DNA of 64,000 nt from Candidatus Bathyarchaeia archaeon (GTDB taxonomy: Archaea; Thermoproteota; Bathyarchaeia; Bathyarchaeales; Bathycorpusculaceae), in contig JAVZNE010000001.1 in assembly GCA_038882975.1 (NCBI GenBank), positions 256,001 through 320,000 on the forward strand, written 5' to 3'. Under the pieces are notes generated by a model that was not told the DNA's origin, did not search any database, and saw only the letters and a program-made list of their open reading frames with translations. Of this stretch, positions 550 through 17,186 are shown one piece after another; positions within the stretch are counted from its first letter, which is position 1, and each line of letters opens with the position of its first letter. The position numbers and the translations under genes are program-made.

Positions 550-625
550 TGTTCCACCAGCCTTTTAATTCTGATTTTAAACTATAAAAAGCATTATCAA
601 CCTAACAAAACATAAATTTTATCGG

Positions 626-1318: not shown

Positions 1319-1343
1319 TTAAAAAGGCAACAGCTGTGTTCGG

Positions 1344-1787
1344 CTAGACTCTTCTTCCTCTTCTTCCGCCTGGTCTCCTTGTGCCATCATGCGGTATGGG
1401 TGTAACTTCTTCTATTCTGCCTATGCGGAATCCAGCTCTGGCTAGGGCTCTTATGGCTGCTTGTGCGCCTGGTCCAGGTGTTCTTGGTCCTGGTCCGCCT
1501 GGCGCCCGCACTTTTATGTGGATGGCTGTTATTCCCTTGTCTTTGGCGATTTCCGCTGCTGCGGCGGCTGCCCTCATGGCGGCGTACGGTGACGATTCTA
1601 GTCTGTCGGCTTTCACGAACATTCCGCCGGAGGTTCGGGCTATGGTTTCTGCTCCTGAAAGGTCTGTTATGTGGACTATTGTGTTGTTGTAGGAGCTGTA
1701 TATGTGGACTACGCCCCACTTTTCAGTCTTTTTCGCTGTAGTTGCAGTTCCGCTTGTGCTTGTGCCTCCGCTACTGCCACCGCTCAT
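1344..1787 (-). CDS. rps11: 30S ribosomal protein S11 (uS11)
   Basis: [49 protein letters not shown]; ATG at 1787 preferred over GTG at 1799. Confidence 0.98.
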
Positions 1788-1788
1788 T

Positions 1789-2361
1789 TTATTCTTCACC
1801 CCTCTCCATTTCAGTTCTTTTTCCGGTTTGCGCCGTGGCAGCGAGGGCCATCATTTGGCGTATTGGGTGGCTTGGGTTTGCTAGGGGGCTGTCCGGTGCG
1901 TAGGCGATTTTCTCTTCTTCTTCTCTTGTTACCAGGTAGCTTGGCACTGTTACGCGTTGGTCGCCTATCACTATGTGTCCGTGGGTTATCAGCTGTCTAG
2001 CCTGATAGATAGATTTGGCTAGTCCTTTTCTGAAGACTATTGTTTGGAGGCGCCTCTCAAGTATATCCTCAACCGTTAAGTCTAAAACATCGTCTAAGAC
2101 TGCTGTCTCATGGATTATTCCAAGCTTTTTAAGGCGTGATAGAAGTTCTTCCTCCATTTTTCTCCTTTCTTCTGGCGCCTTGCCTATTAGGGAGCGGGCT
2201 ATGCCCCTAAATTTTGAAAGCATGGTTTTGTGGCGCCACAACTCGCGTTTATTTCGTAAGCCATACTGCCCCAAAAGTTTAAGCTCTTCTTGGAGAACGT
2301 CTGTCCGCCATGGGAATCGTGGTGTCTCATACTTCTTTTTCTGTTTTTTAGGGTCTCCCAT
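1789..2361 (-). CDS. rps4: 30S ribosomal protein S4 (uS4)
   Basis: [39 protein letters not shown]. Confidence 0.98.
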
Positions 2362-2363
2362 GG

Positions 2364-2849
2364 CTACTTGCCACCGCCTCCAGGCTTCGCTGCAGCCTTC
2401 TTTTTGACCCCAACAGCTTTGCCCGTTCTCCCAGTTGTTCTTGTTCTTTGTCCTCTAACTTTTAACCCGTAAGCGTGTCTGTATCCTCGCCAAGACTTCA
2501 GCTCCTTCATTTTTTCTATATCCATTTTTGTTCTTAGGATTAGGTCTGCGCTTATTAGGTGCATGTCCTTTCCGGTTTCCAAATCTTTCCGTCTGTTCAA
2601 GAGCCAGTCTGGCAGCCCATATTTTGTCGGTTCTTTGATTATTTCCTCTATTTTTTCAACTTCTGCCTCTGTTAGAAAGCCGGCCCTCATGTTTGGGTCT
2701 ATTCCAGCCTTTTTGAGGATGGCGTTGGCTAGGTTTAGGCTTATGCCCTTAATTTTTCTTATGGCGTAGGGTGCCTTCAGAGTGCCATCTATGTCGGTGT
2801 CTGTTATTCTTAGTATGTGGCGGAATTCTCTGGCTGTTTGGCTTGACAT
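2364..2849 (-). CDS. rps13: 30S ribosomal protein S13 (uS13)
   Basis: LPDWLLNRRKD, SWRGYRHAYGLKVRGQRTRTTGR. Confidence 0.98.
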   Translation of the reverse strand: MSSQTAREFRHILRITDTDIDGTLKAPYAIRKIKGISLNLANAILKKAGIDPNMRAGFLTEAEVEKIEEIIKEPTKYGLPDWLLNRRKDLETGKDMHLISADLILRTKMDIEKMKELKSWRGYRHAYGLKVRGQRTRTTGRTGKAVGVKKKAAAKPGGGGK

Positions 2850-2973
2850 CTAACGCATCCATTCCTGTTTGCAAACTAGAAGTTAATCATATTTTATTTA
2901 AACTTTCCTAGTCTGGCAGAGCAGAAAAACACTTAACAATGCGTTTAAACAGCATTTTAAAAGTGGGCTGAAA

Positions 2974-3315
2974 ATGAGCGGCACGGTGCTTGAGGACAGT
3001 GTTTCTGAAGCCTTCCGTAAGAGGGGCTTCATAGTTTTTACAAGGCAGAACCACTGTGATGTTTTAGCTGTCAAGCCAGACATGAGTTTGGCTTACCTTG
3101 TGGAATGTAAGGATTACGCTTTATCTAGAAAACAACAGGTTTTGGCTGTTAGGGAGCTTAACCGCAACTATACCCATGCGCTGGAACTCTTGATAAAGCA
3201 GCGCTTATGCCCGCAAAAAATATTAAAGGTTCTTGTGGCACGAGGCTTCACTTACCAGGCAAGGGGCATACTGCAATACACTCCGGAAACTTTTATTGAA
3301 CATGTTTCCTCATAA
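2974..3315 (+). CDS. Small PD-(D/E)xK nuclease-fold protein (Hjc/Mrr-like)
   Basis: 113 aa; LE..V...F...GF, CDVLAV...LVECK catalytic-type motif. Confidence 0.65.
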   Translation: MSGTVLEDSVSEAFRKRGFIVFTRQNHCDVLAVKPDMSLAYLVECKDYALSRKQQVLAVRELNRNYTHALELLIKQRLCPQKILKVLVARGFTYQARGILQYTPETFIEHVSS

Positions 3316-3397
3316 AAGTGAGAGAAATCAGCTGTTGCTTGCAATAATTTCACAGTACCAAAATATGTTGCTTCGTTAGAAAAATATGGTGTTGCTC

Positions 3398-5572
3398 TTA
3401 TGACGGGCCCCACTGTGGGCTTGTTTTTCCGAAGTATTTGCAGACGAAGCCTAGGTCTTTGGCGTCTACTTTGCGGTCGTTGTTGACGTCTGCTCTGTAG
3501 CACCATCTTGGGTGGACTGGTGGGCCTGGGTCTGAGCCGAAGGCTTTTGAGGCTACTGCTATGTCTTTGCCGTCGACTGTGCCGTCATAGTTGACGTCGT
3601 AGGGTAGGTGGTTGTTTATTGGGTGTTCTGGTGTTGTGTCTTGTAGGGCGTGGGGTATGTAGTACCATTTCCAGAGGTTGTAGGCGTAAACGCCTGGATA
3701 GATTGGGTTGTAGTACCAGCCTACAACCCATGAACGCTCGAAGTGGCGGCTTATTGGCTGGATTATTGGCACGCTTGGGCAGTCTTCGATGGCTAACACT
3801 TGTATGTCATGATATATTTTGGCTCTATTCGGGCCATCAGGTGTGGCGGTGCCTTCTTCTATTAGTTCATCCATAATGAGGTTGGCATATAGTTGCCATT
3901 TAGTGAAAACTCCTTTACTATGGTAGAAGTTATAGGCGAAGTTGTGTGGGTCTGGATAATCGGCGAGCCACCCCATTGCGAATACTGGTATATAATGCCA
4001 TTGAATAGCTTCGATATAGGATATCCAACTTACATAGTAAATCTGCACGTGGAATTTGCTGTTTAGAGATTCAATACTTTGCTTAAGAGTCAGCGCAAAA
4101 TAATCCGGTGTGCTCCTCGGGACGGAAAGTATGGCTATCGTGAAGCCTGTTTCCCATAAGCCCGGAACCGCTTGGAATTCCTGCACTGCCCTTTCGGGGT
4201 TGCAGGCGTAGCCCTCCACGGTGGGGTCATAATATGGTAGGCCCGGTATTACAGTTGTCGCTGGGACTATTGCCTCGCCTGAGTAAGCATCTTGTACATA
4301 TCTTGTGTAGTTGAAGGCGTAGGCAAAAGCTCTCCTAACGTGTATGCCCCATGTTGTGTTACCAAAGAAATCCCTTGGTATGCCGTCCTCATGGAACTCT
4401 CCAGAAGGATACACCTTACCATATGGTGTGGTTGGATCCACATCAAATGTGAAGAATAAGCAATCCACTGCAAGAATTGGCAAAGGATATATGCATCTTA
4501 CACCAGGCTTATTTAAAACTTCGTTTATGTATTGCCTAGGGACAGCACAAAAGTCAAATTCTCCTGCCAAGAATGCGTCACGTCTCTTTGTCCACGTATA
4601 TGCCCAAGTTACGTTTATACGTTCAACCCATCCGGCAGGCTTTGACATTCCAAATGCTGGAAAATCTGCAGGCCAACCCCTCCAATAATCAACATTTCTC
4701 ACAGCAAACCAGTACATGGCTGAATAATCCAGCGTTTCAAGCTTGTATGGGCCTGTTCCACATGTTATTGGTGTTGGGTCATCTAAGGGCGATATTGCTG
4801 GGTTGTGGTAGTTTATCCAGTTTGTGTAGTCTCCCCATTCTCCATTCCACTCTGGACGACCCAATGTACCTATTACGTAGTTGTTTATCCAAGCTTTACT
4901 TATTATGCTTGACCAAGATTGGCAGAGAATCTGCATAAAAGGCGAATAAACGCTTGGGAAAGCAAGGTTAAACCATACATGGGTAGCGTTTGATTCAACA
5001 GCGTGGTCTATGGCTTTCCCAACGTTGATGACACCCTCTGTTGTGCTTAAGTTAAACTTTGGATCCAGTTCCACAAGCCCATAAGCACCCCAAGTGTTTA
5101 GCAACGGTTCATAAAACATCCATGTTGGGCCTGCCTCTCTGTCTTGGACCATGGCGCGTTCAAAGCTGTATTCAACATCTTCAGGCGTTAATGGGCTTCC
5201 ATCATGGAAGTAAACACCTGTCCTTATTTCAAAAATGTACCTACTATACCAGTGCAAGCCCTCCGGGCTTGTCTCATTAATTTCATGCCATGTCCAGCTC
5301 ACTGAAAGGCTTGGAAGAAAATTATCAACGCTTTCTCCGGTATAAGCTATTAACCTATCATAAACATTGTAAATCAGCTCGGCGCTAGCCGTGTCATAAC
5401 ACCATGCAGGGTCAACAGTTTCTGGCCAAGCACCTTCAATATTTGCAACCCTAAGTTCATAGGGCATATTTATTGGAGGTTGAGCCGAAGCGGGCAAAAG
5501 TCCCCATCCAAATAACAAACAAACTAACAAAGTTGTCGTTCTCAAAATGTTTCTCATTAACTTTCTCCTCAA
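3398..5572 (-). CDS. Family 5 (peptide/nickel) ABC substrate-binding protein with C-terminal dockerin-like domain
   Basis: Signal peptide; PETVDPA..YD, FHDGSPLTPEDVEYSFER, GTGPY, GWLADYPDP; tail DVNYDGTVDGKDI...DVNNDRKVDAKDL (two dockerin Ca-binding repeats). Confidence 0.9.
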   Translation of the reverse strand: MRRKLMRNILRTTTLLVCLLFGWGLLPASAQPPINMPYELRVANIEGAWPETVDPAWCYDTASAELIYNVYDRLIAYTGESVDNFLPSLSVSWTWHEINETSPEGLHWYSRYIFEIRTGVYFHDGSPLTPEDVEYSFERAMVQDREAGPTWMFYEPLLNTWGAYGLVELDPKFNLSTTEGVINVGKAIDHAVESNATHVWFNLAFPSVYSPFMQILCQSWSSIISKAWINNYVIGTLGRPEWNGEWGDYTNWINYHNPAISPLDDPTPITCGTGPYKLETLDYSAMYWFAVRNVDYWRGWPADFPAFGMSKPAGWVERINVTWAYTWTKRRDAFLAGEFDFCAVPRQYINEVLNKPGVRCIYPLPILAVDCLFFTFDVDPTTPYGKVYPSGEFHEDGIPRDFFGNTTWGIHVRRAFAYAFNYTRYVQDAYSGEAIVPATTVIPGLPYYDPTVEGYACNPERAVQEFQAVPGLWETGFTIAILSVPRSTPDYFALTLKQSIESLNSKFHVQIYYVSWISYIEAIQWHYIPVFAMGWLADYPDPHNFAYNFYHSKGVFTKWQLYANLIMDELIEEGTATPDGPNRAKIYHDIQVLAIEDCPSVPIIQPISRHFERSWVVGWYYNPIYPGVYAYNLWKWYYIPHALQDTTPEHPINNHLPYDVNYDGTVDGKDIAVASKAFGSDPGPPVHPRWCYRADVNNDRKVDAKDLGFVCKYFGKTSPQWGPS

Positions 5573-5824
5573 AGAGTTATATGAAAATGGTCAAATAAAT
5601 TTTACGCTAAAATTAATGAAAGGATATACCTGCTGGTTATAAAGCAAAAGTCAACACTCTTTCACAACTTTTAATGCCGTTTGATAATTAGGTTAAGTCT
5701 CTCTGTCCCGTGCCAGGTGCCTTTTTAAAAGGAAAAGCGCATCGAAAATCTTAGGATGTGGATGAAATTGATGATGTACAGCCTTTTATAGGAGCGAAGT
5801 AGTGTCGCGGTTTAATTCAAACAA

Positions 5825-5848
5825 TGGTGCTCGGCCGGGATTTGAACC
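5825..5848 (-). mobile_element. tRNA 3'-end fragment (T-arm, acceptor strand, CCA); probable att site relic
   Basis: Minus strand reads GGTTCAAATCCCGGCCGAGCACCA, similar to archaeal tRNA-Glu 3' ends but one nt short; the rest of the tRNA is absent. Confidence 0.75.
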
Positions 5849-5880
5849 GAAACAACAATGCTTGGAGATATCCCCATTAA

Positions 5881-6282
5881 ATTGAAAGGTTCGATGGCTG
5901 CTTCACAAAGGTGGTTCGCAATTACCGGTTTTATGATTATTAGTTTCACTTCATAAGTTTTGAAGCGGGGTTACGCGATATTAATGAAATTTCATGGACT
6001 CTGATATCCCTATTTACAATTCAAATAATTACTTTAATAGCAGCAATAGCTTTTATTTTCCTCGTAAACAAGAGATTTTTATGCATCATTCCAGCGGTCT
6101 TATGCCCCATAACCACGCTATTAATGATAAGTATAACTATGTGCCTGAACCAAACAACATTGGGCAGTTCCGACTATCAATTAGGCTATTGGCCAACATA
6201 TCCCTCAGAAGTGCTGTTCATAGCCAACATACTGGTAAAAAGCAAGAAGTTTACGAAAATCTCAAATAAAATCCGAGCGTAA
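5881..6282 (+). pseudogene. Decayed multi-pass membrane protein gene
   Basis: Frame starting at 5881 reads ...NYRFYDY*FHF...ISWTLISLFTIQIITLIAAIAFIFLV...DYQLGYWPTYPSEVLFIANILVK...IRA*; internal TAG at 5941-5943; no upstream start codon. Confidence 0.5.
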
Positions 6283-6321
6283 GATTCTTTTAAACGATGA
6301 CTAGAGAAATAGATGAGGGAT

Positions 6322-6416
6322 TTATGATGCTTTTCTTTTGCCTAGCCAAAGGATGATGCCAGCGATTATCCAGCAGATTATTGTGCTTACTGGTGTGAAG
6401 CTGCAGTGGGCGTAGT
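6322..6416 (-). pseudogene. 3' remnant of a membrane protein gene abutting the integrase relic
   Basis: C-terminal TM segment FTPVSTIICWIIAGIILWLGKRKAS*; the upstream part of the track ORF is just antisense of the integrase fragment. Confidence 0.35.
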
Positions 6417-6737
6417 AGAAAAGAAAAAGGATTGCAAGAAAGCTAAAACAATCCAAGAATGCTAAAAATAAGTCTGCACACTTTCCGCCATTGAAAAGGC
6501 ACAATAGAATATCATAAAACCAAAGACCTCTTATACGTCAAAAATGTTCTTGGACATAAAGATATAAAGTCGACTATGACCTACATAAACATTGAAAACG
6601 CTTTATCCCAGAACAGCAACGATGAATTTCATGTAAAAACAGCAAAAACCGTTGAAGAAGCAACAAAACTCATTGAAGTAGGCTTCGAATTCGTCCACGA
6701 ATTTGATGGCATCATGATATTTCGGAAAAGGAAATAG
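6417..6737 (+). pseudogene. Tyrosine recombinase/integrase C-terminal remnant
   Basis: RKRIARKL (frameshift) NPRMLKISLHTFRH*KGTIEYHKTKDLLYVKNVLGHKDIKSTMTYIN...KLIEVGFEFVHEFDGIMIFRKRK*; HxxRH, LGH and catalytic Tyr retained; TGA at 6492-6494. Confidence 0.88.
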
Positions 6738-6751
6738 TGTATTGCCATTAT

Positions 6752-6781
6752 GTCATAAATCCGAATAATAAGTCATAAATC
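6752..6781. promoter_or_regulatory. Direct repeat GTCATAAATC x2 (20-bp period) upstream of a wHTH gene
   Basis: Exact 10-mers at 6752-6761 and 6772-6781, just upstream of TATA-like TTTTAAG (about 6799-6805). Confidence 0.5.
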
Positions 6782-6836
6782 GTAATATAGGTTAAATCTT
6801 TTAAGCAGAATAGCCTATAACAGAAAGCGTGTTGGA

Positions 6837-7184
6837 GTGCTGATTTGGATGGTTGGGAGTGGGGAAGAGGAGAAGATTAGGCGTATATTGACGGATGCTA
6901 GGCTTTCGGCGATTAAGGCTATGTTGGAGAAGGACCACGCCATTGACTGTATTTTCCTATTGTATATGGGGCGGGGGAAGTGGAAGGAAGCGAAGGAGTT
7001 TATGAGGGCTAATGGGTTGACGCTTAGTGATGGCACTTTTAGGGCTAGGATGATGGAGATTGAGGAGCTTGGCTTAGCGAAAAGTGAGCGGTTAGACCCT
7101 TTGAAGAAGAAGTATGAGAAGACGGAGTTTGGCGACAAAGTTGCTAAACTTCTCATAGAGTTCTTTGACAAGCTTGGCGTTTAG
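6837..7184 (+). CDS. Winged-helix DNA-binding protein (HxlR/PadR-like)
   Basis: 115 aa; LSDGTFRARMMEIEELGLAKSE...KKKYEKTEFG recognition-helix and wing pattern. Confidence 0.7.
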   Translation: MLIWMVGSGEEEKIRRILTDARLSAIKAMLEKDHAIDCIFLLYMGRGKWKEAKEFMRANGLTLSDGTFRARMMEIEELGLAKSERLDPLKKKYEKTEFGDKVAKLLIEFFDKLGV

Positions 7185-7298
7185 GCTTTAGGCTTCTCCT
7201 CTTGGTTGTGTTGAAAGGGGCGAGAAAGGTTTCTGGTAATTTTCGATTTGTAGTTAGTTATATAAATGTCAATTTTGTTGCTGGTGTTGAACTGCAAA

Positions 7299-7552
7299 AT
7301 TGGTAGCCCCTCTCTAGAATTTTAGCGCTTAGGTTATATTTGTTGTTGGTTTGGCTTAGCAGATATGCTACCCCTCTATGGAATTTGGGCAGTTTTCTGG
7401 CACCATTTTCTCTACCCTCTCCCTCTAGGTTTTGTTACCTTGCAGGTCAATTTAGGAGCGCAGATGTTGTTAAGTTGGATACCTCTCTAGGATTTTTATT
7501 GTTGTTTTGGTTTGTGGGTGTGCCAATAGTGTCTAGCCTCTCTATGGTTTTG
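7299..7552. repeat. Array of five degenerate CCCTCTCTAG-R-TTTT motifs; dispersed repeat copy 1
   Basis: CTAG/CTAT cores at 7314, 7376, 7425, 7487 and 7542; 7445-7552 aligns with 30924-31025. Confidence 0.7.
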
Positions 7553-7662
7553 TGTGTTGTTTTGTTTTACAAATGGATAATATGGTGTATTAAGTCGTAA
7601 GATTTAAATTCTAAGCTTCCCCTAACATACACGATAACAAAAAGGGAGGGATATAAAAGAAA

Positions 7663-8106
7663 ATGAAAATGCTGAAGAGTAGGAAAGCCCTAAGCCCCGT
7701 AGTAGCATCCATCATCCTCATAGCCGTAACAGTCGCCGTCAGCCTAGCCGTGGCTGTATGGATGGGTGGACTAGCCTTCACATTCACAAAAACAGAAGAA
7801 CTAAAGATAACGGGTGCTGACTGGGTGGCTCCGTCTGGCGGAAGCAAATATGTGAACATCTCAGTGTCAAATACCGGCGCATCTGCGGTCTCTGTCTCTA
7901 AAGTATATATAGATAACGTACAATACTCGGTAGCTGGCTATAGTGGGTTTACATATGATTCTTCAACTGGTAGTTATACTTTGGCCAAAGGAGCGTCTGG
8001 TGTGCTCAAAGTAACCTTCCCCTGGTCTTCAAATCAAAAGTATACTATAGCGTTGCAAACAACCACTGGAAATAAGTACGAATATACAACAACAGCTGTT
8101 CCATAA
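7663..8106 (+). CDS. Archaeal type IV pilin-like protein (class III signal peptide)
   Basis: MKMLKSRKA/LSPVVASIILIAVTVAVSLAVAVWM prepilin (PibD/FlaK) motif followed by a Ser/Thr/Tyr-rich beta domain. Confidence 0.9.
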   Translation: MKMLKSRKALSPVVASIILIAVTVAVSLAVAVWMGGLAFTFTKTEELKITGADWVAPSGGSKYVNISVSNTGASAVSVSKVYIDNVQYSVAGYSGFTYDSSTGSYTLAKGASGVLKVTFPWSSNQKYTIALQTTTGNKYEYTTTAVP

Positions 8107-8201
8107 CAAACTGCAGACAACGTTGAGATTGGGGGTAGGGTGTTAGCTGTTTCCAAAATTTTCCCCTATTCTATTGTTCCATGTTGGAGGTGTAAAATCG
8201 T

Positions 8202-8627
8202 ATGGTAGTGGAATTGAAGGAGTATGCTTCGGCTGAGGACATAGCCGAAACCCTGGAGAAGCAGATAGCCGAAACTAAGAGCACTTTGGGCGAGTACCTG
8301 CGCCGCCTAGACGAGATTAGGGCACTAGCCGAAAAGTCTAAGAAAATCCGAGAAGTGGTTATGAAGTTGGCTGGGAAGAAGGCGGCTGCCGAAAGCCTTG
8401 GCGAAATAACAGTTGGCAGTTTAAGTATTGTTTTGGATGCCAACCCATTCCACGAGCTGACAGCCATAGAGCAGGTAGTCCGAAGCTATCAGGAGAGGCT
8501 TCTGGTCTTGCAGAAAGCACGAGAAGCCCTAAAATGGCTTGACCAGCTAGGAGACACTGAAGGCTTAAAATACATTGTTGTTGAAAACGACGGCGTTCCA
8601 GAGCGCATCCTATTCAAAATAACATAG
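8202..8627 (+). CDS. Hypothetical coiled-coil protein
   Basis: 141 aa with GGAGGTG SD; long amphipathic helices; co-oriented with the roadblock genes. Confidence 0.75.
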   Translation: MVVELKEYASAEDIAETLEKQIAETKSTLGEYLRRLDEIRALAEKSKKIREVVMKLAGKKAAAESLGEITVGSLSIVLDANPFHELTAIEQVVRSYQERLLVLQKAREALKWLDQLGDTEGLKYIVVENDGVPERILFKIT

Positions 8628-8657
8628 CCAAGCGCCCTCCTTTAAAGTGGTGAAAGC

Positions 8658-9491
8658 ATGATGGAAAATGATGTCTATGCTGTTGCGCTACAAAATGCCT
8701 TAAACGAGATGCGAAACGCTTGTCCAGAAATACATCACGCCTTCATCCTCAAAGAAACAGGCGAAGTAATCGCCGGAGACGCGGAAACCCCTCAAAAGGT
8801 CGTTGTTCGAGTTTTAGACGCCTTCAACGGCATATTCAACAGGGCTGAAGCCATAGGAGGCGTTGAAGCTATAACCCTAAAATGTGGCGGCGGCACGGTA
8901 ACCCTCCACAGTTTTGGCGAAAATCACCTCGTCATGGTCACGTCTGCAAAGGCAGACCTAAACTACATAAACACTTTAACCCGCGTCCTAATCCCAACAG
9001 TTCTTAAACTGCTAGAGAAAATCAGCCCTACCCCCCTCAAAAACATACCCCCACAGAAGACGGCAAGGCCAACACCACCAGCCATAAGCGAACTAGAAAC
9101 CCCAAAAATCGGCGAACCCCCAGAGGAGGAGGTTGCCGAAGAACCAATTATGGAAAAGCCAAAACAAGAGGAAGTTAAAACAGAAGTGCCGTCCTTCGAG
9201 GTGCCAGCCACCCAGCTAATAGTGGAAAACATTGGAGGCTTGCTAGTGCCATCAGATACTGTGCGCATAGACAATGAAACCCTAACTCAATGGGAAAACA
9301 TGTTTGAAGGCAAAAAAGTTGAATACGTCGAAATAGAAACTTTCGATGGAAAAACAACAAAGTGCAAGGTTAAACCCATAAAGGACTCAAAATATTTTGG
9401 CAAGGGGATAGTGCAAGTTCCAGAGAAAATGCAGCTAACCCTGGAAATCAAGAAGGGCGAACTCGTCAGGGTTAAGCCTATAATAGAATAA
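8658..9491 (+). CDS. Roadblock/LC7 (MglB-like) domain, Pro/Glu linker and double-psi beta-barrel-like C-terminal domain
   Basis: N-terminal LNEMRNACPEIHHAFILKETGEVIA roadblock pattern; C-terminal DTVRID...GIVQVPEKMQLTLEIKKGELVRVKP resembles the CDC48/VAT N-domain GD-box repeats. Confidence 0.7.
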   Translation: MMENDVYAVALQNALNEMRNACPEIHHAFILKETGEVIAGDAETPQKVVVRVLDAFNGIFNRAEAIGGVEAITLKCGGGTVTLHSFGENHLVMVTSAKADLNYINTLTRVLIPTVLKLLEKISPTPLKNIPPQKTARPTPPAISELETPKIGEPPEEEVAEEPIMEKPKQEEVKTEVPSFEVPATQLIVENIGGLLVPSDTVRIDNETLTQWENMFEGKKVEYVEIETFDGKTTKCKVKPIKDSKYFGKGIVQVPEKMQLTLEIKKGELVRVKPIIE

Positions 9492-9507
9492 AAACGGAGG
9501 CGCGTTC

Positions 9508-9906
9508 ATGACAAAGAAAAAGAAAAGCCTAGAAGAAACCGCAACCGCAGAAACACTAGTCCAACCAATAGCCATAGAAACAGCTACGATAGAAGACCTA
9601 AAAACCCGCCTAGAAGAGATTAAGGGCTACGAAGGCGTAATAGGCTATATACTGCGAAACGCCACATCAGCAACCATAGACCTAAAAGACCCAACAAAAC
9701 TCATAGAATACGCCATCCTCTCCTCATCGGCTCTCGACGCTGCAGAAGAACTATCAGAACTGTTTAGTCTAGGAGACTTCCGCGACATCCTCGTGGAGGG
9801 AAGAGACACAAAAATCCTCTCCTTAACAATAGGCGAAAACAGAATAAGCATATTCCTCGAGAAAAACGCCGACATAGAAAAACCCCTCAAAAAACTCCAA
9901 TTTTAA
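9508..9906 (+). CDS. Roadblock/LC7 domain protein
   Basis: LEEIKGYEGVIGYILRN...LGDFRDILVEG...ISIF alpha-beta-beta-alpha-beta-beta-beta pattern. Confidence 0.75.
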   Translation: MTKKKKSLEETATAETLVQPIAIETATIEDLKTRLEEIKGYEGVIGYILRNATSATIDLKDPTKLIEYAILSSSALDAAEELSELFSLGDFRDILVEGRDTKILSLTIGENRISIFLEKNADIEKPLKKLQF

Positions 9907-10036
9907 AGGGGCTTAAAAGGGCACAATCCCTCATTTTCCAATCTTGCTTCTCTCTTCAGAACACTTAAATCTCCCTCTGCAAATTTATTCAAGTGGAGAA
10001 GGGAACCTTTTAAGCCTCCCTAAAGGAGGCAACATA

Positions 10037-10324
10037 TTGAACTTGCAGGCAAATAACAGGAAGCATAGCAATAAACATCGAGGAAGCCTAGACATAATCG
10101 CAGACATTCTAAGAGCCTCAAAAGGGAAAACAAGGAAAACATACCTCATGTACCGATGCAATTTAAGCTTTAGACAGCTAGAAAACTATTTGAACCTCCT
10201 CTTGGAAAGGGGACTCCTAAAAGCCATAAAAGACAACGGCAACGACACAAGCTTGTTTAGGATTACGGAAAAGGGTGAACGCTTTTTAGAAACCTACAAG
10301 GGCTTATTGGGGCTTATGGAGTAA
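10037..10324 (+). CDS. Winged-helix transcriptional regulator (ArnR1/DUF2495-like)
   Basis: RGSLDIIADIL...KTYLMYRCNLSF.QL..YL..L...GLL...FRITEKG; TTG at 10037 follows a GGAGG SD. Confidence 0.85.
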   Translation: MNLQANNRKHSNKHRGSLDIIADILRASKGKTRKTYLMYRCNLSFRQLENYLNLLLERGLLKAIKDNGNDTSLFRITEKGERFLETYKGLLGLME

Positions 10325-10519
10325 AGTTTTGAGGAAAACATCGCTAAGCCTCACCCTTTCACCACACTCTTCCACAACCACAAAGTTATACTTGACTAGA
10401 AACTCTACCGCCCTTTTTAGGTCTTGACGGCCAAGCCTTGTTTTCCGCCGTAACTCTTCTAAAGAGTGCCATTCGCCATCCTCGAGGAGTTCAAGGATTT
10501 TTGAAATAGTCTTTTCCGT
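10304..10519 (-). CDS. Small wHTH protein absent from the ORF track (apparent ACG start)
   Basis: (M)EKTISKILELLEDGEWHSLEELRRKTRLGRQDLKRAVEFLVKYNFVVVEECGERVRLSDVFLKTLLHKPQ*, 71 aa; GGAGG 8 nt upstream of ACG; no in-frame ATG/GTG/TTG between the upstream TAA and the wHTH core. Confidence 0.65.
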   Translation of the reverse strand, partial: TEKTISKILELLEDGEWHSLEELRRKTRLGRQDLKRAVEFLVKYNFVVVEECGERVRLSDVFLKTLLHKPQ

Positions 10520-10618
10520 TGATGTGTCCTCCAGCGTACTTACTAGTTTTGCCAGAATTGTTTAAATGCCTTCTGAAGTTTTCTTTTAGAGGCTTCCTCT
10601 AGAACAAAAAACGAGAGA

Positions 10619-13414
10619 TTATGCCCCAACCTGCTTTCTCAAAACTTCCTCAACCTTTTCTAGGGCTTCTTTCAGCTTTTCCGGTTTTGTACCTCCGCCC
10701 TGTGCGAAGTTTGTTCTTCCACCGCCTCCGCCGCCAATTATTTCTGAGGCTTCTCGGACAATTTCAGCCGCGTTTACGCCTTTTTCAACAGCCTTTTTCC
10801 CAGCCATAACCATTATCCGAGCTGTTTTTCCATCGGAACCATAAAATACGGCAACAGCCGAGTCGTCCTTCTTTATTATTTCGTTTGCCGTTTGAACCAT
10901 AACATCAACGTTTATCTCCTCTTTAAAATCGCGGGTCACAAGTCTAACTTCGCCTATTTGGCGGACGACCTCTAAGCTTGGTTCTACTCCAACGCCTACA
11001 ACAGCCTGTTTAGCCAGCTTCTCCACAAGCTTCCTTCTTTCCGCCTTCACCTCCTTCAATTCCCTGACGATTTTTTCAGCTGTTTTGTCAAGCTTCTCCA
11101 GTGGAGCGCCGAGGGTTTCTGAAACCCGCCAGAGAAGCTCCTCATTCCTCTGCATAGCCTTCAAGGCTTGGATTCCAACAGCATAAACAAGCCTTTCAAC
11201 GCCGTCTTGTATTCTCTCTGAATGGATGATTTTTATGAAGCCTATCTCGCCGGTGTTCCTAACATGGGTTCCGGCGCAAGCCTCAACCTCCCAGTCTCCA
11301 ACCTTCACAACGCGGATTTCTTTGCCGGGAACAGCTCCGCCTTGATAAAGCCTAAAACCGTATTGGCTTTCAGCCTCCGACCTTGGAAGCCACATGGTTT
11401 CGACGGGTATGTTTCTGAAAACAGCCTCATTGGCTAAAGCCTCTATTTTCTGCACCTCTTCCCGTGTTAATCTGCGGTAGTGGGATATGTCAAGTCTTGA
11501 ACTTTCAACGCTCTTTTGCGTGCCAAACTGCCAAACATGCTGCCCCAAAACGCGTCTTGCCGCGCCATTAACAATGTGGGTGGCTGTGTGCGCCTTCATT
11601 AGGGCGTAGCGCTTATCCCAATCAATGACCCCTCTAATAGTGGCGCCTTCCCTTGGGGCCTTTTTGCCACCAATTTTGTGGACAATAACCTTGCCAACCT
11701 TCTTAACGTCTAAAACTTCGGCTTTCCCGTCTTCGAAAAATAGCCAACCAGTGTCTGATGGTTGCCCACCGCCCTCTGGATAGAAACACGTTTTATCAAG
11801 AATGACGTATTCGCCACCGCCAATAACCTTCAAGACTTTAGCCTTAAACTCGTGCATATATTGGTCCTTATAGTAAAGCGTCTCTGTTTCTGGAAGACCA
11901 GCCACCTCATCCTCAAGCCACTTTTCAGTTTTAGCCTCCTCCTCGGTTGGTTTCTGGGTTTGCATGTGCCTTTCGGCAATCAATGCATAGAAGTTTTCGG
12001 GAACAGCAGCCTCTAAACCTTCGCTTTCGGCTATTTCCTTAACAATTTCTGGCGGAACACCATGCGAGTCGTAAAGCTCCGTCATGGTTTCAACTGGAAC
12101 ACGCCCCACGCCTTTAGCCCTAAGCTCTCCGGCAAGCCTTCTTACTAGGCGTTCACCCCTCGTGATGGTCTCCTTATATTTCTCCTCTTCAACGGCGAGA
12201 ATCTCCATTATTTCGTTGCGCATCTCCCTAAGATGCGGATAATCCAAAGACCAATAATCAATCTGCAAGTCAAAAATGTCATATAGCTTGTCTGCGATGC
12301 CAAGCATCCTTAGCAGACGGTATATTCTGCGGAAAAGAAGCCTAGCCAAGTAGCCCTCCTGAATGTTGGATGGAACAACTCCCTCAGAAAGGATGAAGGT
12401 TAGGCATTTCGTGTGGTCCGTGATTGCAAAGGCATTCTCAACCGGAAGCAAAACATCATCCAATGTTTTCGCGTCAATGCCAATGGCTTCGGCTATCTTC
12501 CTTCTAGCCTCAAATCTGCCAACAGTTTTGTCTAAGCTTATCATAGCTGAATACTTGGCAACCTTCGCCAACAAATCGTAATCAAAGCTTACTCCAGCCA
12601 TCTTGAAGACTTTGCCAAGCAATTCGCCGTAAATGGCGTGAAAAGCGCTGACAGAGCCTTGAGAAAGCCATGCATATCGGTCTATTCCATAGCCAACATC
12701 AACGGTCCGTATTGGCAATTTAATAAACTGGTCGCCGACAACCTTGTACTGCATAAAGACAAGCGTGGCAACTTCTAATCCGCGAACGATACACTCTAAA
12801 CATGGACCAGCATTTCCGCCCCCAGACCAAATCTCTTCCTTATAGGTTACCTCTTCTGGTTTTATACTCAACTCTCTGGCAAATTCATCGTGATAGCGAA
12901 CCGTCTCATCCTTCCAGTAAACCTCCTTGTCAGGGTAGTTGAAGGCGTGCTCCCCACCCATCTCAAAAATTGTAACGTACTTGCCAAAGGTTGGACCAGT
13001 ATTGGTTATGTCCACAAGGCGGATACATGGCTGAGCAATAACGAGAGGATTTGCCGGGGGCGGAGCAATCCCCTCAGTAACATAGGGCTGAAAGTCAATT
13101 ATGCTTGCATGCGTCAAGTATATGTCGTCCCGCCACCTAGCCACAACCGGGTAGGGCTTTATCCGCGTGTGTCCCCGCCTCTCAAAGAAGGAGAGGAAGA
13201 ACTCCCGCATCTCCCGCAAATTGTAGCTCCGCCTTGTGGGCGGGTTCCCAATAAAAGTGTAGTGGGCACAACCTTCCGGTCTGGCTTCCCCACAAGTTTC
13301 TTGTTCAGGGTTTAAGGTCCAATAGTATGTGCCGCACTTTGGACAAAGTTTCCTAACATAACCCTTCTCCTTAAAGAAGGGAAGGGCATACTCCTCTGCT
13401 GGAAATCTCTCCAA
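10619..13414 (-). CDS. alaS: Alanine--tRNA ligase (archaeal type)
   Basis: YPVVARWRDD, AITDHTK, FYPEGGGQPSD, editing domain HTATH/CAGTH, C-terminal GGGG..FAQGGG. Confidence 0.97.
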   Translation of the reverse strand: MERFPAEEYALPFFKEKGYVRKLCPKCGTYYWTLNPEQETCGEARPEGCAHYTFIGNPPTRRSYNLREMREFFLSFFERRGHTRIKPYPVVARWRDDIYLTHASIIDFQPYVTEGIAPPPANPLVIAQPCIRLVDITNTGPTFGKYVTIFEMGGEHAFNYPDKEVYWKDETVRYHDEFARELSIKPEEVTYKEEIWSGGGNAGPCLECIVRGLEVATLVFMQYKVVGDQFIKLPIRTVDVGYGIDRYAWLSQGSVSAFHAIYGELLGKVFKMAGVSFDYDLLAKVAKYSAMISLDKTVGRFEARRKIAEAIGIDAKTLDDVLLPVENAFAITDHTKCLTFILSEGVVPSNIQEGYLARLLFRRIYRLLRMLGIADKLYDIFDLQIDYWSLDYPHLREMRNEIMEILAVEEEKYKETITRGERLVRRLAGELRAKGVGRVPVETMTELYDSHGVPPEIVKEIAESEGLEAAVPENFYALIAERHMQTQKPTEEEAKTEKWLEDEVAGLPETETLYYKDQYMHEFKAKVLKVIGGGEYVILDKTCFYPEGGGQPSDTGWLFFEDGKAEVLDVKKVGKVIVHKIGGKKAPREGATIRGVIDWDKRYALMKAHTATHIVNGAARRVLGQHVWQFGTQKSVESSRLDISHYRRLTREEVQKIEALANEAVFRNIPVETMWLPRSEAESQYGFRLYQGGAVPGKEIRVVKVGDWEVEACAGTHVRNTGEIGFIKIIHSERIQDGVERLVYAVGIQALKAMQRNEELLWRVSETLGAPLEKLDKTAEKIVRELKEVKAERRKLVEKLAKQAVVGVGVEPSLEVVRQIGEVRLVTRDFKEEINVDVMVQTANEIIKKDDSAVAVFYGSDGKTARIMVMAGKKAVEKGVNAAEIVREASEIIGGGGGGRTNFAQGGGTKPEKLKEALEKVEEVLRKQVGA

Positions 13415-13496
13415 CTCTGAACGCCTCTGTAAACTCTCTTATTCCCAATAGTGTTTTAATGGATTAACAAGGTGGTCTTCCATTTAAACTATTTTG

Positions 13497-13811
13497 CTAT
13501 CCAAGTTTTAAGCCTAAAATGAAGCCTGCAACAAAGCTTCCAAAAAAGGGCAACAAAGCCACTACGCTGACTAGCCATGAGATTGCTGACCCGGCCCAAT
13601 GGAAAAAGTTGCTTACAGCCTCGAACAATGCTTCATAGTTTATGCTCACGTGTATTATCCCCTTCATGCCGAGATAAAGGAGAACAACAATGAATAATCC
13701 TATCAGAAGCAGTATGAGCTTACTTAACTTTTTGAGGGTGAATCCCAAGATGAAGCCGCCTATCCCGCCGACGCCCAACTGGAAAATTATCGATGGGAAA
13801 ACTTCGCTCAT
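13497..13811 (-). CDS. FUN14-domain membrane protein
   Basis: QLGVGGIGGFILGFTLKK...YLGMKGIIHVSINY...GSFVAGFILGLK. Confidence 0.8.
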   Translation of the reverse strand: MSEVFPSIIFQLGVGGIGGFILGFTLKKLSKLILLLIGLFIVVLLYLGMKGIIHVSINYEALFEAVSNFFHWAGSAISWLVSVVALLPFFGSFVAGFILGLKLG

Positions 13812-13892
13812 CTACGGTTTCTCCAAACGTTCTGCTACTGTTAAAATTTATCAGCTTAATAACCTTTTAGCACCATCTAATATTAGGCGGGG

Positions 13893-14147
13893 GTGAATAG
13901 ACTGGAATTGCTTGAAATATACTTGTTAAACTTGGCTTTAACTTTAGGCATGTTTGTTGTTTTGATTTTTAGGGCTTGGATTGAGCTTAAAAACTATAGG
14001 TTGATGTGGAAGGAGCTGGAGTGGAGGCAAACCTATCAGGCTGTGGGGCGCATACTAAAGGCTGAAAGGGAAATGTTCTCGAAGGTTGAGGGCGGAGACG
14101 AGCTTTATAGGCTGCTGTGCGAAATTTTCAAGGTTAAAGAGGGCTAG
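13893..14147 (+). CDS. Hypothetical single-TM protein
   Basis: 84-aa ORF with an N-terminal hydrophobic helix; fills the intergenic gap. Confidence 0.6.
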   Translation: MNRLELLEIYLLNLALTLGMFVVLIFRAWIELKNYRLMWKELEWRQTYQAVGRILKAEREMFSKVEGGDELYRLLCEIFKVKEG

Positions 14148-14158
14148 GAGCCTCTTAT

Positions 14159-15499
14159 CTACGGGTAGTGCCAGCCCTCAATTAATCCATTCACAGAAAC
14201 GTGGCGCTTTTCCATTCCGTAGCGGATGAAGGGCTTTGTTAAATGCCTTTGAGAACGTGGAGAGGTTATATAAAGTCCCTTCCGCACTTCACGCTTAACC
14301 TTGACAGCGACCTTCTCCAGCTCTGCATAGCGCGTGCCGCATTTTTCACATCTGAAGCCTTTGCCTTTCCCCATGGATTTTAGCCGTTTACCACACTGCG
14401 GGCAAGCTGGGTTTTGGTAAACAATTTTTGGTGCAAGCTTCAATAAGCGCAGTTTTTCAAGATTTATTGTTAATGGGCGCTTTTCGGATGGTGGGCGAAC
14501 GCCGCCATAAACTTCCACAAAATCGCCAATAATGAGTTTGCTTGCCACTTTCCTCAGTGTGCCAGTAGGTTCATATGCGGCACAGTCGACAGAAGCGCTG
14601 TTGTCCTTAATCTGGAAGATAATATGTCTTCTCGGAATTATCTTCGGATTTGACGCTACCGTTCCCTTGGCTATGACTGGGTGGTAAGGTTTTACCTCGC
14701 TTAAACTTTTAACCCGTTTTAGGTGGGCGTCCGTGCCGTGGTTTGTGCGGAAAATTACCCAACGTTCCACAGGCTCTAGGGGCTTAACCATCTCGAATGC
14801 CTTCTTAACAATTTCTGGGGTTTCACCCCTTATCCCAAAGAGGATGGGGTCTGGTCCCCGAGGCGTTATCAAAATTCTGCCAGTTTCCGGGTCAACATTG
14901 TTAAAGGTGTAAGGGGCTGTCGCCTTATCCATCTCGAAAACAGAAGCCACATCTATCCTTCTCTTCAAGCCATAGTTTCCCGGAACACGGTAGGCTATAA
15001 CTTCGAAGGTGTGGTCTCCATGGAGGTTTTCACCCACAGCAGCCAAACCGCCGATTATCCCGCGTCCATTTTTGAAGCCTATGGCTTCGGCTCTGAAACG
15101 CTTTAGGATTTTTAGGGCTGTTTTCATGTCCGCAATGCCGGTTATGGCGTTTTTTGCAAAAGCTTTAACCTCTCCCGGAATTTTCGCTCTTTGGAAGAAG
15201 ACTATTCCGGGTTCTGTTCCTTTGTAGGCTAGGTCGGAGTTTTCTTCGACGGTTTCTATTACTGTTTCCTTAATAACGTCAACAAGGCTTTCTTCACATT
15301 TTATTCTTAGACATAAAGCCCCGTTCCCCCTCGTTTTCCAAGGAACGTTTGGGTTCAACCTAACAAGGTTTGGATAGTCTGTGAACACTGCGCCTAACTT
15401 ATGCAGTTTCTCAACTAATAGTGCCGCAATGTAGGTTGTGCATCCTTTTCTCGGAGAGTCTGTATCGTCAAAGCCTATATGTAATTGTTGTAAAGTCAT
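14159..15499 (-). CDS. tiaS: tRNA(Ile2) 2-agmatinylcytidine synthetase
   Basis: IGFDDTDS..GCTTY, RLNPNVPWKTRGNGA, OB fold AYEPTG, CPQC..CEKC zinc ribbon, RHLTKP. Confidence 0.95.
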   Translation of the reverse strand: MTLQQLHIGFDDTDSPRKGCTTYIAALLVEKLHKLGAVFTDYPNLVRLNPNVPWKTRGNGALCLRIKCEESLVDVIKETVIETVEENSDLAYKGTEPGIVFFQRAKIPGEVKAFAKNAITGIADMKTALKILKRFRAEAIGFKNGRGIIGGLAAVGENLHGDHTFEVIAYRVPGNYGLKRRIDVASVFEMDKATAPYTFNNVDPETGRILITPRGPDPILFGIRGETPEIVKKAFEMVKPLEPVERWVIFRTNHGTDAHLKRVKSLSEVKPYHPVIAKGTVASNPKIIPRRHIIFQIKDNSASVDCAAYEPTGTLRKVASKLIIGDFVEVYGGVRPPSEKRPLTINLEKLRLLKLAPKIVYQNPACPQCGKRLKSMGKGKGFRCEKCGTRYAELEKVAVKVKREVRKGLYITSPRSQRHLTKPFIRYGMEKRHVSVNGLIEGWHYP

Positions 15500-15607
15500 T
15501 CACATGCCTAACAGCATTAGCACCATGAAGGCTTAAAAATTGTGCTTTGACATTTTGACGTTAGCAAATACTTCACACGTCTGGAAATAAAAGAGAGTGG
15601 GGTTAGG

Positions 15608-15850
15608 CTACTTTGTTGCTTCCTCAACTATGATCATTGTTAATGTTGACCTAACTTTGTCGAGTCTTCGAATGCGCCAAGTTACAATCTCCTTAAGCTT
15701 GTCCATTGATTCAGCGCCTACCCTCGCGATTATGTCATATACACCGTAAACAGCGAAGGCTTCTTCAACACCCTCAATCTTCTTTAAATCCTTTAGAACA
15801 TCTGACTCTGAGCCTATCTCCGTGTTGATTAATACAAAGGCTTTCGGCAT
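15608..15850 (-). CDS. Stand-alone Lrp/AsnC ligand-binding (RAM) domain protein
   Basis: AFVLIN...VYGVYDIIARV...IRRLDKVRSTLT. Confidence 0.9.
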   Translation of the reverse strand: MPKAFVLINTEIGSESDVLKDLKKIEGVEEAFAVYGVYDIIARVGAESMDKLKEIVTWRIRRLDKVRSTLTMIIVEEATK

Positions 15851-15932
15851 TTAAACCTCCTCATGATATTGTCTTATCCTCTGCATTAAAATATTTTGTG
15901 TTACGAAAAAGGGAAACTACGAATATTTTAAA

Positions 15933-17111
15933 ATGGACCAGAATGCATTTTATATCATGCGTTTGGAAGTCGTTGTTGTTTACTACATGGTTTCGGCTTT
16001 AGGCGAATTCTCCCTTGAAATTCCCTATTTGGCTTATTATCTCTTCCAAAGCCTTGGGTTGGGTTACAGTTTCTTATACATTGCAGTCTTCGCACTTGTT
16101 TTCGGCTTACTTGACTACCCAACTGGCGGTCTTGCAGACCGTTTTGGAAGAAAACGCACATACGCCCTGGGTTTGGCTTTCATTGCCCTCAACTATTTAA
16201 TAGTGGCATTCTATCCTTTTCCTATAATTGTAATTTTAGCCGCCTTTTCGGCTGGTTTTGGGGCTGCCCTTCAAAGCGGCTCCCTTGAAGCTTGGATAAC
16301 CGACGAGTTAGAGAAAGACGGGAAGATTAAAGATTTAGACAAGGTTTTTGGACGGGGAACATCCTTCAGCCTCATAGCGGATGTGATCGCTGGAATTGCT
16401 GGAAGCATCATCACATTTATTGTTGGATATTGGTGGACCATCCCCACGGCTGGAATTATCGCCTTAGCAGCCTTCGTATTTGCGATGATTTTCATGCCAG
16501 AAAATTGGGGCGCAGGTGAAAGGAAACCTTATACCAAACTGCTGAAGAGTGGGGCTAGATGGATTTTTGGAAGGAAATCGCTGTTATTTTTGGGGTTAGC
16601 CCAAACCCTCTTCATAGCTGGCGCCTACTCATATTGGGAGACGCTAACACCAGTCTACGGCGAGAGGGGAATGCCAGAAGCCCTCTTTGGCTTGATAGGC
16701 TCAGCCATGCACTTGCCAGCAGTAGCCACCACCGCCTATGCACACCGCTTAACAAGAAAAGTTGGCTGTATGAAAGCCACAGTCATTTTATCTTGGGCTT
16801 GGACTGGCTCATGTCTCCTAATCACATTTTTAACTCATCCAGCCGCCACCATAATTTTGGTTATTTTATTGGAAAGCCTTATTGCCACACGCCACCCCAT
16901 AATTGAATTTTGGCAGAATACACTTATCCCCAGCGGTATACGAGCAACGGTTCTAAGCGGTTTAAGCACTTTAATGCATGTTGGGCAAAGCTTCACCTTA
17001 TTCATATTATCTCCCCTCGTGCAGGTGTACGGAACAACCTGGGGGCTACTCTCGGCAGTCGCCCTAACAACCATCTCAAACATTACCCTATTTTTCACAG
17101 AGGAAGGCTAA
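15933..17111 (+). CDS. MFS transporter
   Basis: Many TM segments; motif A PTGGLADRFGRK; SGSLEAW. Confidence 0.9.
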   Translation: MDQNAFYIMRLEVVVVYYMVSALGEFSLEIPYLAYYLFQSLGLGYSFLYIAVFALVFGLLDYPTGGLADRFGRKRTYALGLAFIALNYLIVAFYPFPIIVILAAFSAGFGAALQSGSLEAWITDELEKDGKIKDLDKVFGRGTSFSLIADVIAGIAGSIITFIVGYWWTIPTAGIIALAAFVFAMIFMPENWGAGERKPYTKLLKSGARWIFGRKSLLFLGLAQTLFIAGAYSYWETLTPVYGERGMPEALFGLIGSAMHLPAVATTAYAHRLTRKVGCMKATVILSWAWTGSCLLITFLTHPAATIILVILLESLIATRHPIIEFWQNTLIPSGIRATVLSGLSTLMHVGQSFTLFILSPLVQVYGTTWGLLSAVALTTISNITLFFTEEG

Positions 17112-17186
17112 TTTTAGTTAGGAGAATGTTTGAGATTGAAAATATTCTTATCCTTAATGTGCGATATTAGCTGTTAGGTTCGGGAT

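Follow-up and report, generated by a model that had tools for sequence, protein, structure and literature searches.

Which machine does a pilin gene serve when it is accompanied by three small accessory genes and by no assembly gene? This question is raised by a gene block in a stretch of 64,000 nucleotides from Candidatus Bathyarchaeia archaeon (contig JAVZNE010000001.1 of assembly GCA_038882975.1, positions 256,001 to 320,000, here also G000:C1:256001-320000), called the window below, which belongs to a 1.42-Mb genome of 15 contigs that is 94.7% complete. In the block, the gene of an archaeal type IV pilin with a class III signal peptide (7663..8106, plus strand) is followed on the same strand by cc141 (8202..8627), rb277 (8658..9491) and rb132 (9508..9906), which encode a 141-aa helical hairpin protein, a two-domain protein of 277 aa and a 132-aa roadblock/LC7 protein, respectively. 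The open reading frames (ORFs) bear out the positions and the co-orientation that an earlier reading of the bare sequence, hereafter the original prediction, had given to these four genes, and homologues of the block proteins carry the source labels Candidatus Bathyarchaeia or Bathyarchaeota. The original prediction took the block for a control system of surface filaments, in which a roadblock heterodimer and an adaptor position or switch pili, and overall this interpretation is partly supported. We hold, with moderate confidence, that the block, which is specific to one Bathyarchaeia order, comprises a pilin together with a three-protein unit that assists or regulates one type IV pilus and that would work independently of a GTPase.

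The core of the archaeal type IV pilus is known, namely the ATPase, the platform protein, the pilins and the peptidase; to our knowledge, the cytoplasmic control of these pili is almost uncharted. Bathyarchaeia are plentiful in sediments, and their lifestyle likely centres on adhesion. The block described here provides a compact and strongly conserved roadblock case with a clear candidate target machine.

A conserved block and its candidate pilus machine

The conservation of the block was assessed in 18 loci around rb277 matches, which were fetched from 18 relatives belonging to several families of one Bathyarchaeia order. In 16 of these loci cc141, rb277 and rb132 are adjacent and co-oriented, and because of this synteny the block is not a chance arrangement; as for the other two, one contig stops after the rb277 match (L029), and one locus has only a barrel-bearing paralogue (L030). 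The pilin gene is found upstream of cc141 in 15 of the 18, the remaining three being two contigs that end just past cc141 and one paralogue locus. Around this core, the small gene u115 lies upstream of the pilin in 13/18 loci, a minus-strand winged helix-turn-helix (wHTH) gene is present in 11/18 and an Sso10a-type wHTH gene was matched in 9/18, and the genes that flank the block change between families. Identity to the window proteins amounts to 72-99% for cc141, 66-98% for u115, 39-98% for rb132, 30-91% for rb277 and 36-54% for the pilin.

The spacing of the genes is also conserved. The gaps in the window are 95 nt between pilin and cc141, 30 nt between cc141 and rb277, and 16 nt between rb277 and rb132, and the coordinates in nine relatives give 69-105 nt, 11-35 nt and at most 25 nt for the same three gaps. 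By these sizes, cc141, rb277 and rb132 look like one tight operon, with the pilin gene set apart behind a spacer of constant size. As to the wider distribution, a cc141 orthologue and rb277 occur together in the same 28 of 41 relatives, and the other 13 have neither. In an even set of 301 genomes sampled across the phylum, the rb277 profile matches 21 genomes of the window's order with one weak match elsewhere, and wherever a strong cc141 orthologue occurs, in 21 genomes, rb277 is its direct neighbour. Since the cc141 family reaches further than rb277, the operon is an order-level invention around an older family.

The pilin was judged by a K/R-G/A cleavage motif and a hydrophobic helix within the N-terminal archaellin/pilin domain. 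Its N-terminus reads MKMLKSRKA/LSPVVASIILIAV, with RKA/LSPVVASIILIAVTVAV as the cleavage region, and with 30.9 bits against TIGR02537, the model of this domain (cut-off 20), it is a member; the Pilin_N model was matched at E 0.09. The UpsA equivalog model NF046073 covers residues 7-144 at E 3.3e-12 and 46.7 bits, which does not reach the cut-off of 130, and on this sequence comparison the pilin is UpsA-like and no UpsA orthologue. It thus shares with the Ups pilus of Sulfolobales (UpsA/UpsB, UpsE, UpsF, UpsX) a match over the whole length of the UpsA model, but apart from the low score, the block differs in having no UpsX, UpsE or UpsF and in having unrelated accessory genes.

Where the machine for this pilin is encoded is best approached through a relative. 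Among the 12 flanking ORFs scanned in the window (34-19248), no assembly ATPase, platform protein, prepilin peptidase or GTPase was found, as the original prediction had stated for the GTPase and the ATPase (che genes, which it also reported missing, were not searched for), and the locus is thus not a complete pilus locus. The window genome has three T2SSE ATPases, none of them inside the window. In the genome of a relative, G030 (99% complete), there is one T2SSE ATPase at E <= 1e-10, and here PilB (550 aa), PilC (567 aa) and a pilin-like gene lie divergently beside u115, 4 kb from rb277, these being the only PilB and PilC of the genome. The ATPase of G030 is 81% identical to the window-genome ATPase C1:113062-114690. 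The corresponding pilus locus of the window genome (L062, G000:C1:103000-117000), about 150 kb from the block, contains a prepilin peptidase (Peptidase_A24 and Arc_PepC_II), a 143-aa pilin, a 789-aa F5/8-type-C protein, three uncharacterised proteins, a 284-aa class III signal protein, PilC (T2SSF, C1:111360-113084), PilB and a 621-aa PKD/Big_1 surface protein. This locus likely is the machine for the window's pilin. The pilin would then belong, probably as the main subunit, to a single particular type IV pilus, whose ATPase, platform protein, minor pilins, adhesin-like proteins and prepilin peptidase would be encoded at that distance.

The distribution of this ATPase across genomes points in the same direction. 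Taking as orthologue, or type-A, any ATPase with 75% identity or more to C1:113062-114690, we found it in 26 of the 28 relatives that bear the block, the exceptions being G031 (76% complete) and G018, and in three of the 13 that lack it (G006, G009 and G032); at a contig end, G032 also retains u115 and the beginning of the pilin. In ten further genomes of the family, all four with the block have the ATPase, as do two of the six without it (G099 and G332). In total, the type-A ATPase is present in 30/32 genomes with the block and in 5/19 without, counts that are uncorrected for kinship, which inflates them. Moreover, within two genera whose other members have both, they are jointly absent, namely from G012 inside genus g1 and from four of the six genomes of genus g30. 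From these counts and joint absences, we conclude that the block depends on the ATPase machine and that the reverse is not so. Altogether, the type IV pilus link put forward by the original prediction is upheld by the upstream pilin, by the adjacency in G030 and by this co-occurrence.

Roadblock proteins and the GTPase question

The 277-aa product of rb277 consists of a roadblock domain (residues 1-122), a linker (about 123-184) rich in P and E and disordered, and a double-psi beta-barrel (DPBB, 185-277). The AlphaFold2 model, built with 48 homologues, has a predicted local distance difference test score (pLDDT) of 80.8 and displays the roadblock fold in 1-122, disorder in 129-178 and the barrel in 185-275. 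In the first of these the secondary structure runs alpha-beta-beta-alpha-beta-beta-beta-alpha, which is the order of the roadblock fold, and the Robl_LC7 sequence model (PF03259) gave no match to rb277. With Foldseek, the N-terminal domain matches 9jue (Asgard Roadblock3), 3kye and MglB 6hjm at E 2.5e-6 to 1e-5, with TMt of 0.70-0.78 to these three and 7f8m, and LAMTOR structures were matched too. The barrel matches the DPBB of 7dg9 at E 9.5e-7 (TMt 0.83, root-mean-square deviation 2.1 over 95 columns, 22% identity), and against CDC48_N (PF02359) the protein obtains E 0.0095 and 16.6 bits, below the cut-off of 35.1. As in the N-terminal DPBB of VAT/Cdc48/p97, the C-terminal 90 residues of rb277 form a double-psi beta-barrel; unlike those proteins, rb277 has neither a beta-clam subdomain nor an AAA+ domain, as it stops at residue 277 directly after the barrel. 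The 277-aa roadblock fusion of the original prediction thus has a single roadblock joined to a DPBB barrel, and not a pair of roadblocks.

rb132 matches Robl_LC7 at E 4.1e-4 and 20.5 bits, below the gathering score of 23, and it is the only protein in the whole genome matched by that model. For its homologues, precomputed annotation puts PF03259 on two cluster representatives, some are named roadblock/LC7 by NCBI, and JGI applies the COG-type label 'Roadblock/LC7/MglB family'. Aligned by hhalign, rb132 and the N-terminal domain of rb277 match over 91 columns at E 1.9e-4 with a probability of 47%. The N-terminus of rb132 is conserved and basic (MTKKKK). A complex prediction of rb277 and rb132 with cc141 as partner, run without controls, gave a median of 0.28 against a mark of 0.32 and counts neither way.

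Roadblock proteins are known as regulators of small GTPases, and the original prediction allowed for a GTPase encoded in trans or absent. None of the models of Ras (PF00071), Arf (PF00025), SRPRB/SRbeta (PF09439) and Gtr1_RagA (PF04670) detected a small GTPase in this genome, which is 94.7% complete; their matches are confined to HflX (416 aa), FeoB (653 aa) and further large GTPase ORFs, and no GTPase was found in the scanned flanks of the window and of five relatives' loci; for this assembly, the absence is thus supported. One rival explanation depends on such a GTPase, namely that the roadblock pair is an MglB-like GTPase-activating protein (GAP) for a small MglA- or Ras-like GTPase encoded elsewhere, and sets pilus polarity as in Myxococcus or Thermus. 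It would be in keeping with the Foldseek match of the rb277 N-terminal domain to MglB 6hjm (E 1e-5, TMt 0.78) and to 3t12 and 6izw, and with Methanobacterium, where a supplementary table (PMC4858521) lists a roadblock gene beside the pilin and then an SRbeta-like GTPase. Since no small GTPase was matched in the genome, an MglB-type GAP role in this organism is unlikely, and the rival as a whole we regard as very improbable. The block shares with MglA/MglB of Myxococcus xanthus and Thermus thermophilus the roadblock fold and the link to type IV pili, but it differs in that no MglA-like GTPase was found in the genome and that one of the partners bears a tethered barrel. It would exemplify roadblock proteins that work without a small GTPase.

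Roadblock genes near pilins are not new in themselves. The presence of roadblock/LC7 (arCOG02603) genes in archaeal type IV pilus loci was noted in 2016 by Makarova, Koonin and Albers (PMC4858521), whose supplementary table gives for Methanobacterium a pilin, then a roadblock, then an SRbeta-like GTPase or KaiC-like ATPases. As far as the loci given there go, the block resembles them in that a roadblock gene comes directly after that of a pilin bearing a class III signal peptide. It differs from the Methanobacterium loci of that table, which have one roadblock within the pilus locus and a GTPase or KaiC-like protein, in having two roadblocks (one of them fused to a DPBB) as well as cc141, in having no GTPase, and in that its assembly genes are usually distant. 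None of the terms roadblock, LC7, MglB and GTPase occurs in the main text of PMC13705601, which surveyed the T4F machineries of archaea in 2026. In the literature searched, neither a roadblock-DPBB fusion nor a pilin-cc141-rb277-rb132 operon turned up, and, by title and abstract, neither did anything relevant on roadblock proteins in Bathyarchaeia. The claim that such a module had not been described accordingly holds, as far as this literature goes, for the present composition and is too wide for roadblocks in pilus loci as such; the fusion of a roadblock with a VAT-type double-psi barrel likewise appears to be undescribed.

From the folds and the gene order, a scheme of the unit can be proposed. 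The products of cc141, rb277 and rb132 would form a cytoplasmic unit that serves the pilus without a Ras-like GTPase; its two roadblock domains would pair, as solved roadblock dimers suggest, and the double-psi barrel, on a tether of roughly 60 residues, may bind a partner peptide in the manner of the N-domains of VAT/Cdc48. With cc141 as a probable third subunit, the complex may act at the cytoplasmic face of the pilus machine, that is on the ATPase, the platform or the supply of prepilin. A more specific version, in which the trio is a GTPase-independent Ragulator-like complex that is docked on one pilus machine, gates assembly or pilin supply and is tuned by an RNA or DNA box, we consider unlikely. 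The likeness to Ragulator/LAMTOR is that two different roadblocks are encoded with a helical protein and that the rb277 N-terminal domain resembles LAMTOR2/3 structures in fold; unlike Ragulator, the trio is accompanied by no Rag GTPases, cc141 is a compact hairpin with strands where LAMTOR1 is a wrapping chain, and the assembly of the trio is putative. If this docking version were true, it would mean a new class of pilus control device around a prefoldin-like family found throughout Thermoproteota.

cc141 and a general complex as the main rival

cc141 is the most conserved protein of the block and belongs to no known family. Its AlphaFold2 model from 72 diverse homologues (pLDDT 92.2) is a helical hairpin with five short strands, arranged as a strand, a 47-residue helix, a hairpin, a 35-residue helix and a hairpin. 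Foldseek returned nothing at E <= 0.001, the top match being prefoldin (E 0.05, TM 0.25-0.49); VIA-align over 48,161 chains gave generic helical hairpins only (best Z 9.1), and a profile search of PDB gave coiled-coil noise only. Prefoldin PF02996 is weakly matched by 21 of 72 family members (best E 2.5e-4), and for the window's own cc141 the prefoldin models PF02996 and PF01920 gave no match at E up to 1, nor in the genome scan. The strand order (beta-H-hairpin-H-hairpin) is moreover unlike the prefoldin coiled coil with its central beta-hairpins. That cc141 is a canonical prefoldin is unlikely, as prefoldin alpha and beta are encoded elsewhere in the genome and neither model matches cc141. 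The family is present in 99 of the 301 phylum genomes; many complete genomes of Thermoprotei are among them, with members that are 20-37% identical along their full length. To this family, which roughly one in three of the sampled Thermoproteota genomes encodes, the block gives a testable context.

The main rival draws in part on this breadth. According to it, cc141, rb277 and rb132 form a general cytoplasmic complex, be it chaperone-like, a scaffold or for envelope biogenesis, that has no specific role in pili, the adjacency of the pilin being simply inherited within the order. Several observations weigh against the pilus unit and some of them favour this rival directly. First, 12 Thermoprotei loci have cc141 without roadblocks, which marks the family as older than the block, and of the scanned ORFs, about 3 kb on each side of cc141 in these loci, none matched T2SSE, T2SSF or Pilin_N. 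Their neighbours vary, for example succinyl-CoA ligase and pyrophosphatase in one family and a CCA-adding enzyme in others, and in 4 of the 12 cc141 adjoins CarboxypepD_reg proteins of large size that have a signal peptide and are anchored at the C-terminus. Secondly, a paralogue of cc141 in Bathyarchaeia adjoins MoxR-VWA and TrmB genes and two proteins that belong to no Pfam family. Thirdly, 72-99% identity for cc141 against 36-54% for the pilin is unusual for a pilus accessory protein and resembles the conservation of a housekeeping protein. The weak likeness to prefoldin and the very high word depth of cc141 in a sediment RNA library, reported below, also fit a general complex. As for the co-occurrence, block and ATPase lie on one contig in six genomes, where they are adjacent only in G030 and 91-664 kb apart in the others; the ATPase occurs without the block in G006, G009, G032, G099 and G332, and the block without the ATPase in G031. 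Much of it may reflect shared descent, with whole families having both or neither. In G018 (94% complete), where the type-A ATPase was not found, u115 and the pilin are intact and only fragments interrupted by stops and frame changes remain of cc141, rb277 and rb132 (L058, G018:C3:36000-42150), and the pilin is thus retained without the three genes.

Against this rival, in turn, stand the pilin that stays in place across families while the flanks of the block change, the type-A ATPase that accompanies the block nearly always, the canonical prefoldin pair encoded elsewhere in the genome, and the existence of high-quality genomes of the same order without the block, because of which the block is not essential. 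Weighing both sides, we consider a general complex possible, if somewhat unlikely, and retain the pilus unit as the best explanation.

The RNA data touch on both. Two public RNA libraries contain contigs that are 90-99% like the window and that cover cc141 and the N-terminal domain of rb277, with word depths in run X1 of 1,600-2,400 for the former and 250-580 for the latter, and one 203-nt contig (run X5) bridges the junction of cc141 and rb277. As evidence for one transcript these contigs are weakened by the fact that they stem from related organisms, that DNA carry-over is possible and that the spacer between pilin and cc141 is uncovered; the largest number of them, moreover, was drawn by the most conserved gene. 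They show presence in RNA libraries and are no operon map. Among raw reads of two hot-spring RNA runs, none matched in about 3% of each, which has no bearing on co-transcription.

Besides, some features of the cc141 relatives are worth recording on their own. In L035, L036, L040 and L046, five CarboxypepD_reg proteins lie beside cc141 homologues; four of the five have a signal peptide, the three largest have a C-terminal membrane anchor as well, and these neighbours probably belong to the surface layer or the envelope. Two cc141-homologue loci from different Thermoprotei families (L031 7637-8008 and L032 6123-6482) have in common a neighbour protein of about 120 aa, whose N-terminus is basic and which contains 8-11 histidines in a row. 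The Bathyarchaeia paralogues (L053-L057, from G005, G013, G021, G016 and G026) are 176-183 aa long and share a C-terminal Y..DG.PE.I motif; no such paralogue was found in the window genome. In their cluster, a protein of 181-226 aa is present in five loci, with an ORF of 155-181 aa upstream of it in three, both outside any Pfam family; of the four loci scanned, all have an adjacent TrmB regulator and three also have MoxR-type AAA and VWA genes. The 181-226-aa partner was tried and rejected as a relative of the roadblocks (hhalign probability below 1% to either).

Regulatory genes, the spacer box and the flanks

The spacer between pilin and cc141 (8107-8201) contains a G-rich box of 18 nt on the plus strand, TTGAGATTGGGGGTAGGG (8123..8140), which is conserved with at most two edits in 11 of 16 loci across several families, unlike the remainder of the spacer, which is unalignable among loci. 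On its 3' side follow a variable stretch, a C/T-rich tract and then the GGAGG of cc141. A search of the genome that allowed up to 1 mismatch finds the box once. One can draw hairpins in which the G box pairs with the pyrimidine tract, yet single-sequence folds are no better than shuffles in 9 of 10 cases; together with RNAalifold, which gave no consensus pairs, this led us to reject an RNA structure for the box. Judged by its conservation, it is a candidate cis-regulatory element.

Three wHTH genes accompany the box. On the plus strand downstream of rb132 lies a gene (10037..10324, in a frame open from 9944) that belongs to HTH_45 (E 1.5e-19, 70.2 bits, cut-off 25.5) and to the Sso10a family (NF053610, 76.9 bits, cut-off 60); its start is probably the TTG at 10037 behind a GGAGG, because the orthologues are about 95 aa long (93-100 aa). 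Convergent with it and overlapping it by 21 nt is a small minus-strand frame (10304..10549), of the DUF2582 type with E 5.6e-5 and 23.6 bits (cut-off 24.2), which has no ATG, GTG or TTG before residue 57. Orthologues of 70-78 aa with canonical starts exist in six other loci from other genera, and tblastn finds the frame at 65-98% identity in three other genomes of the same genus, none of which has a canonical-start ORF of at least 50 aa; it uses a rare start codon or else is a decaying gene. The two convergent wHTH genes of the original prediction are thus both wHTH-like, and the position 10519 given there for the start of the second is not a start codon. The third is u115 upstream of the pilin (6837..7184, plus strand), a very conserved small wHTH-like protein with 49 invariant columns in 13 orthologues, which begin near residue 5 and so at the likely start ATG 6849. 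No Pfam, NCBIfam or PDB sequence match was found for it (PDB was tried with the single sequence and with a profile); its nearest named cluster in the ESM Atlas is HxlR (0.93, 181 shared features), and an HxlR/ArnR1-like winged helix by such language-model features is a lead only.

In the scheme of a pilus unit, the three wHTH proteins and the intergenic box would set the expression of the pilin and the read-through into the operon. The same elements can be read in another way, namely that the whole block is a gene-regulatory unit, in which rb277 is a sensor whose roadblock dimerises or senses and whose barrel serves as a binder of DNA or peptide in the manner of AbrB, and which together with the wHTH proteins sets pilin transcription and leaves the machine untouched. 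Three wHTH genes, one of them for an Sso10a-family DNA binder, and a conserved 18-nt box between pilin and cc141 would suit such a unit, and double-psi and swapped-hairpin barrels are related folds. On the other hand, the best matches of the barrel are N-domains of VCP-like ATPases and not AbrB, the barrel is not basic (pI 6.3, with 15 K+R vs 15 D+E), the downstream wHTH genes are absent from several loci that keep the three genes, and the box, being single-copy, defines no regulon. We therefore hold a purely regulatory role to be quite unlikely.

As regards the surroundings, Rfam and tRNA scans of the window gave no match. The block is bounded on the far side by the alanyl-tRNA synthetase gene (10619-13414, minus strand) and on the near side by a minus-strand gene (3398-5572) for a 724-aa extracellular solute-binding protein (SBP_bac_5) with a dockerin type I domain at its C-terminal end (E 5.8e-7), and dockerin matches occur near the block in two relatives as well.

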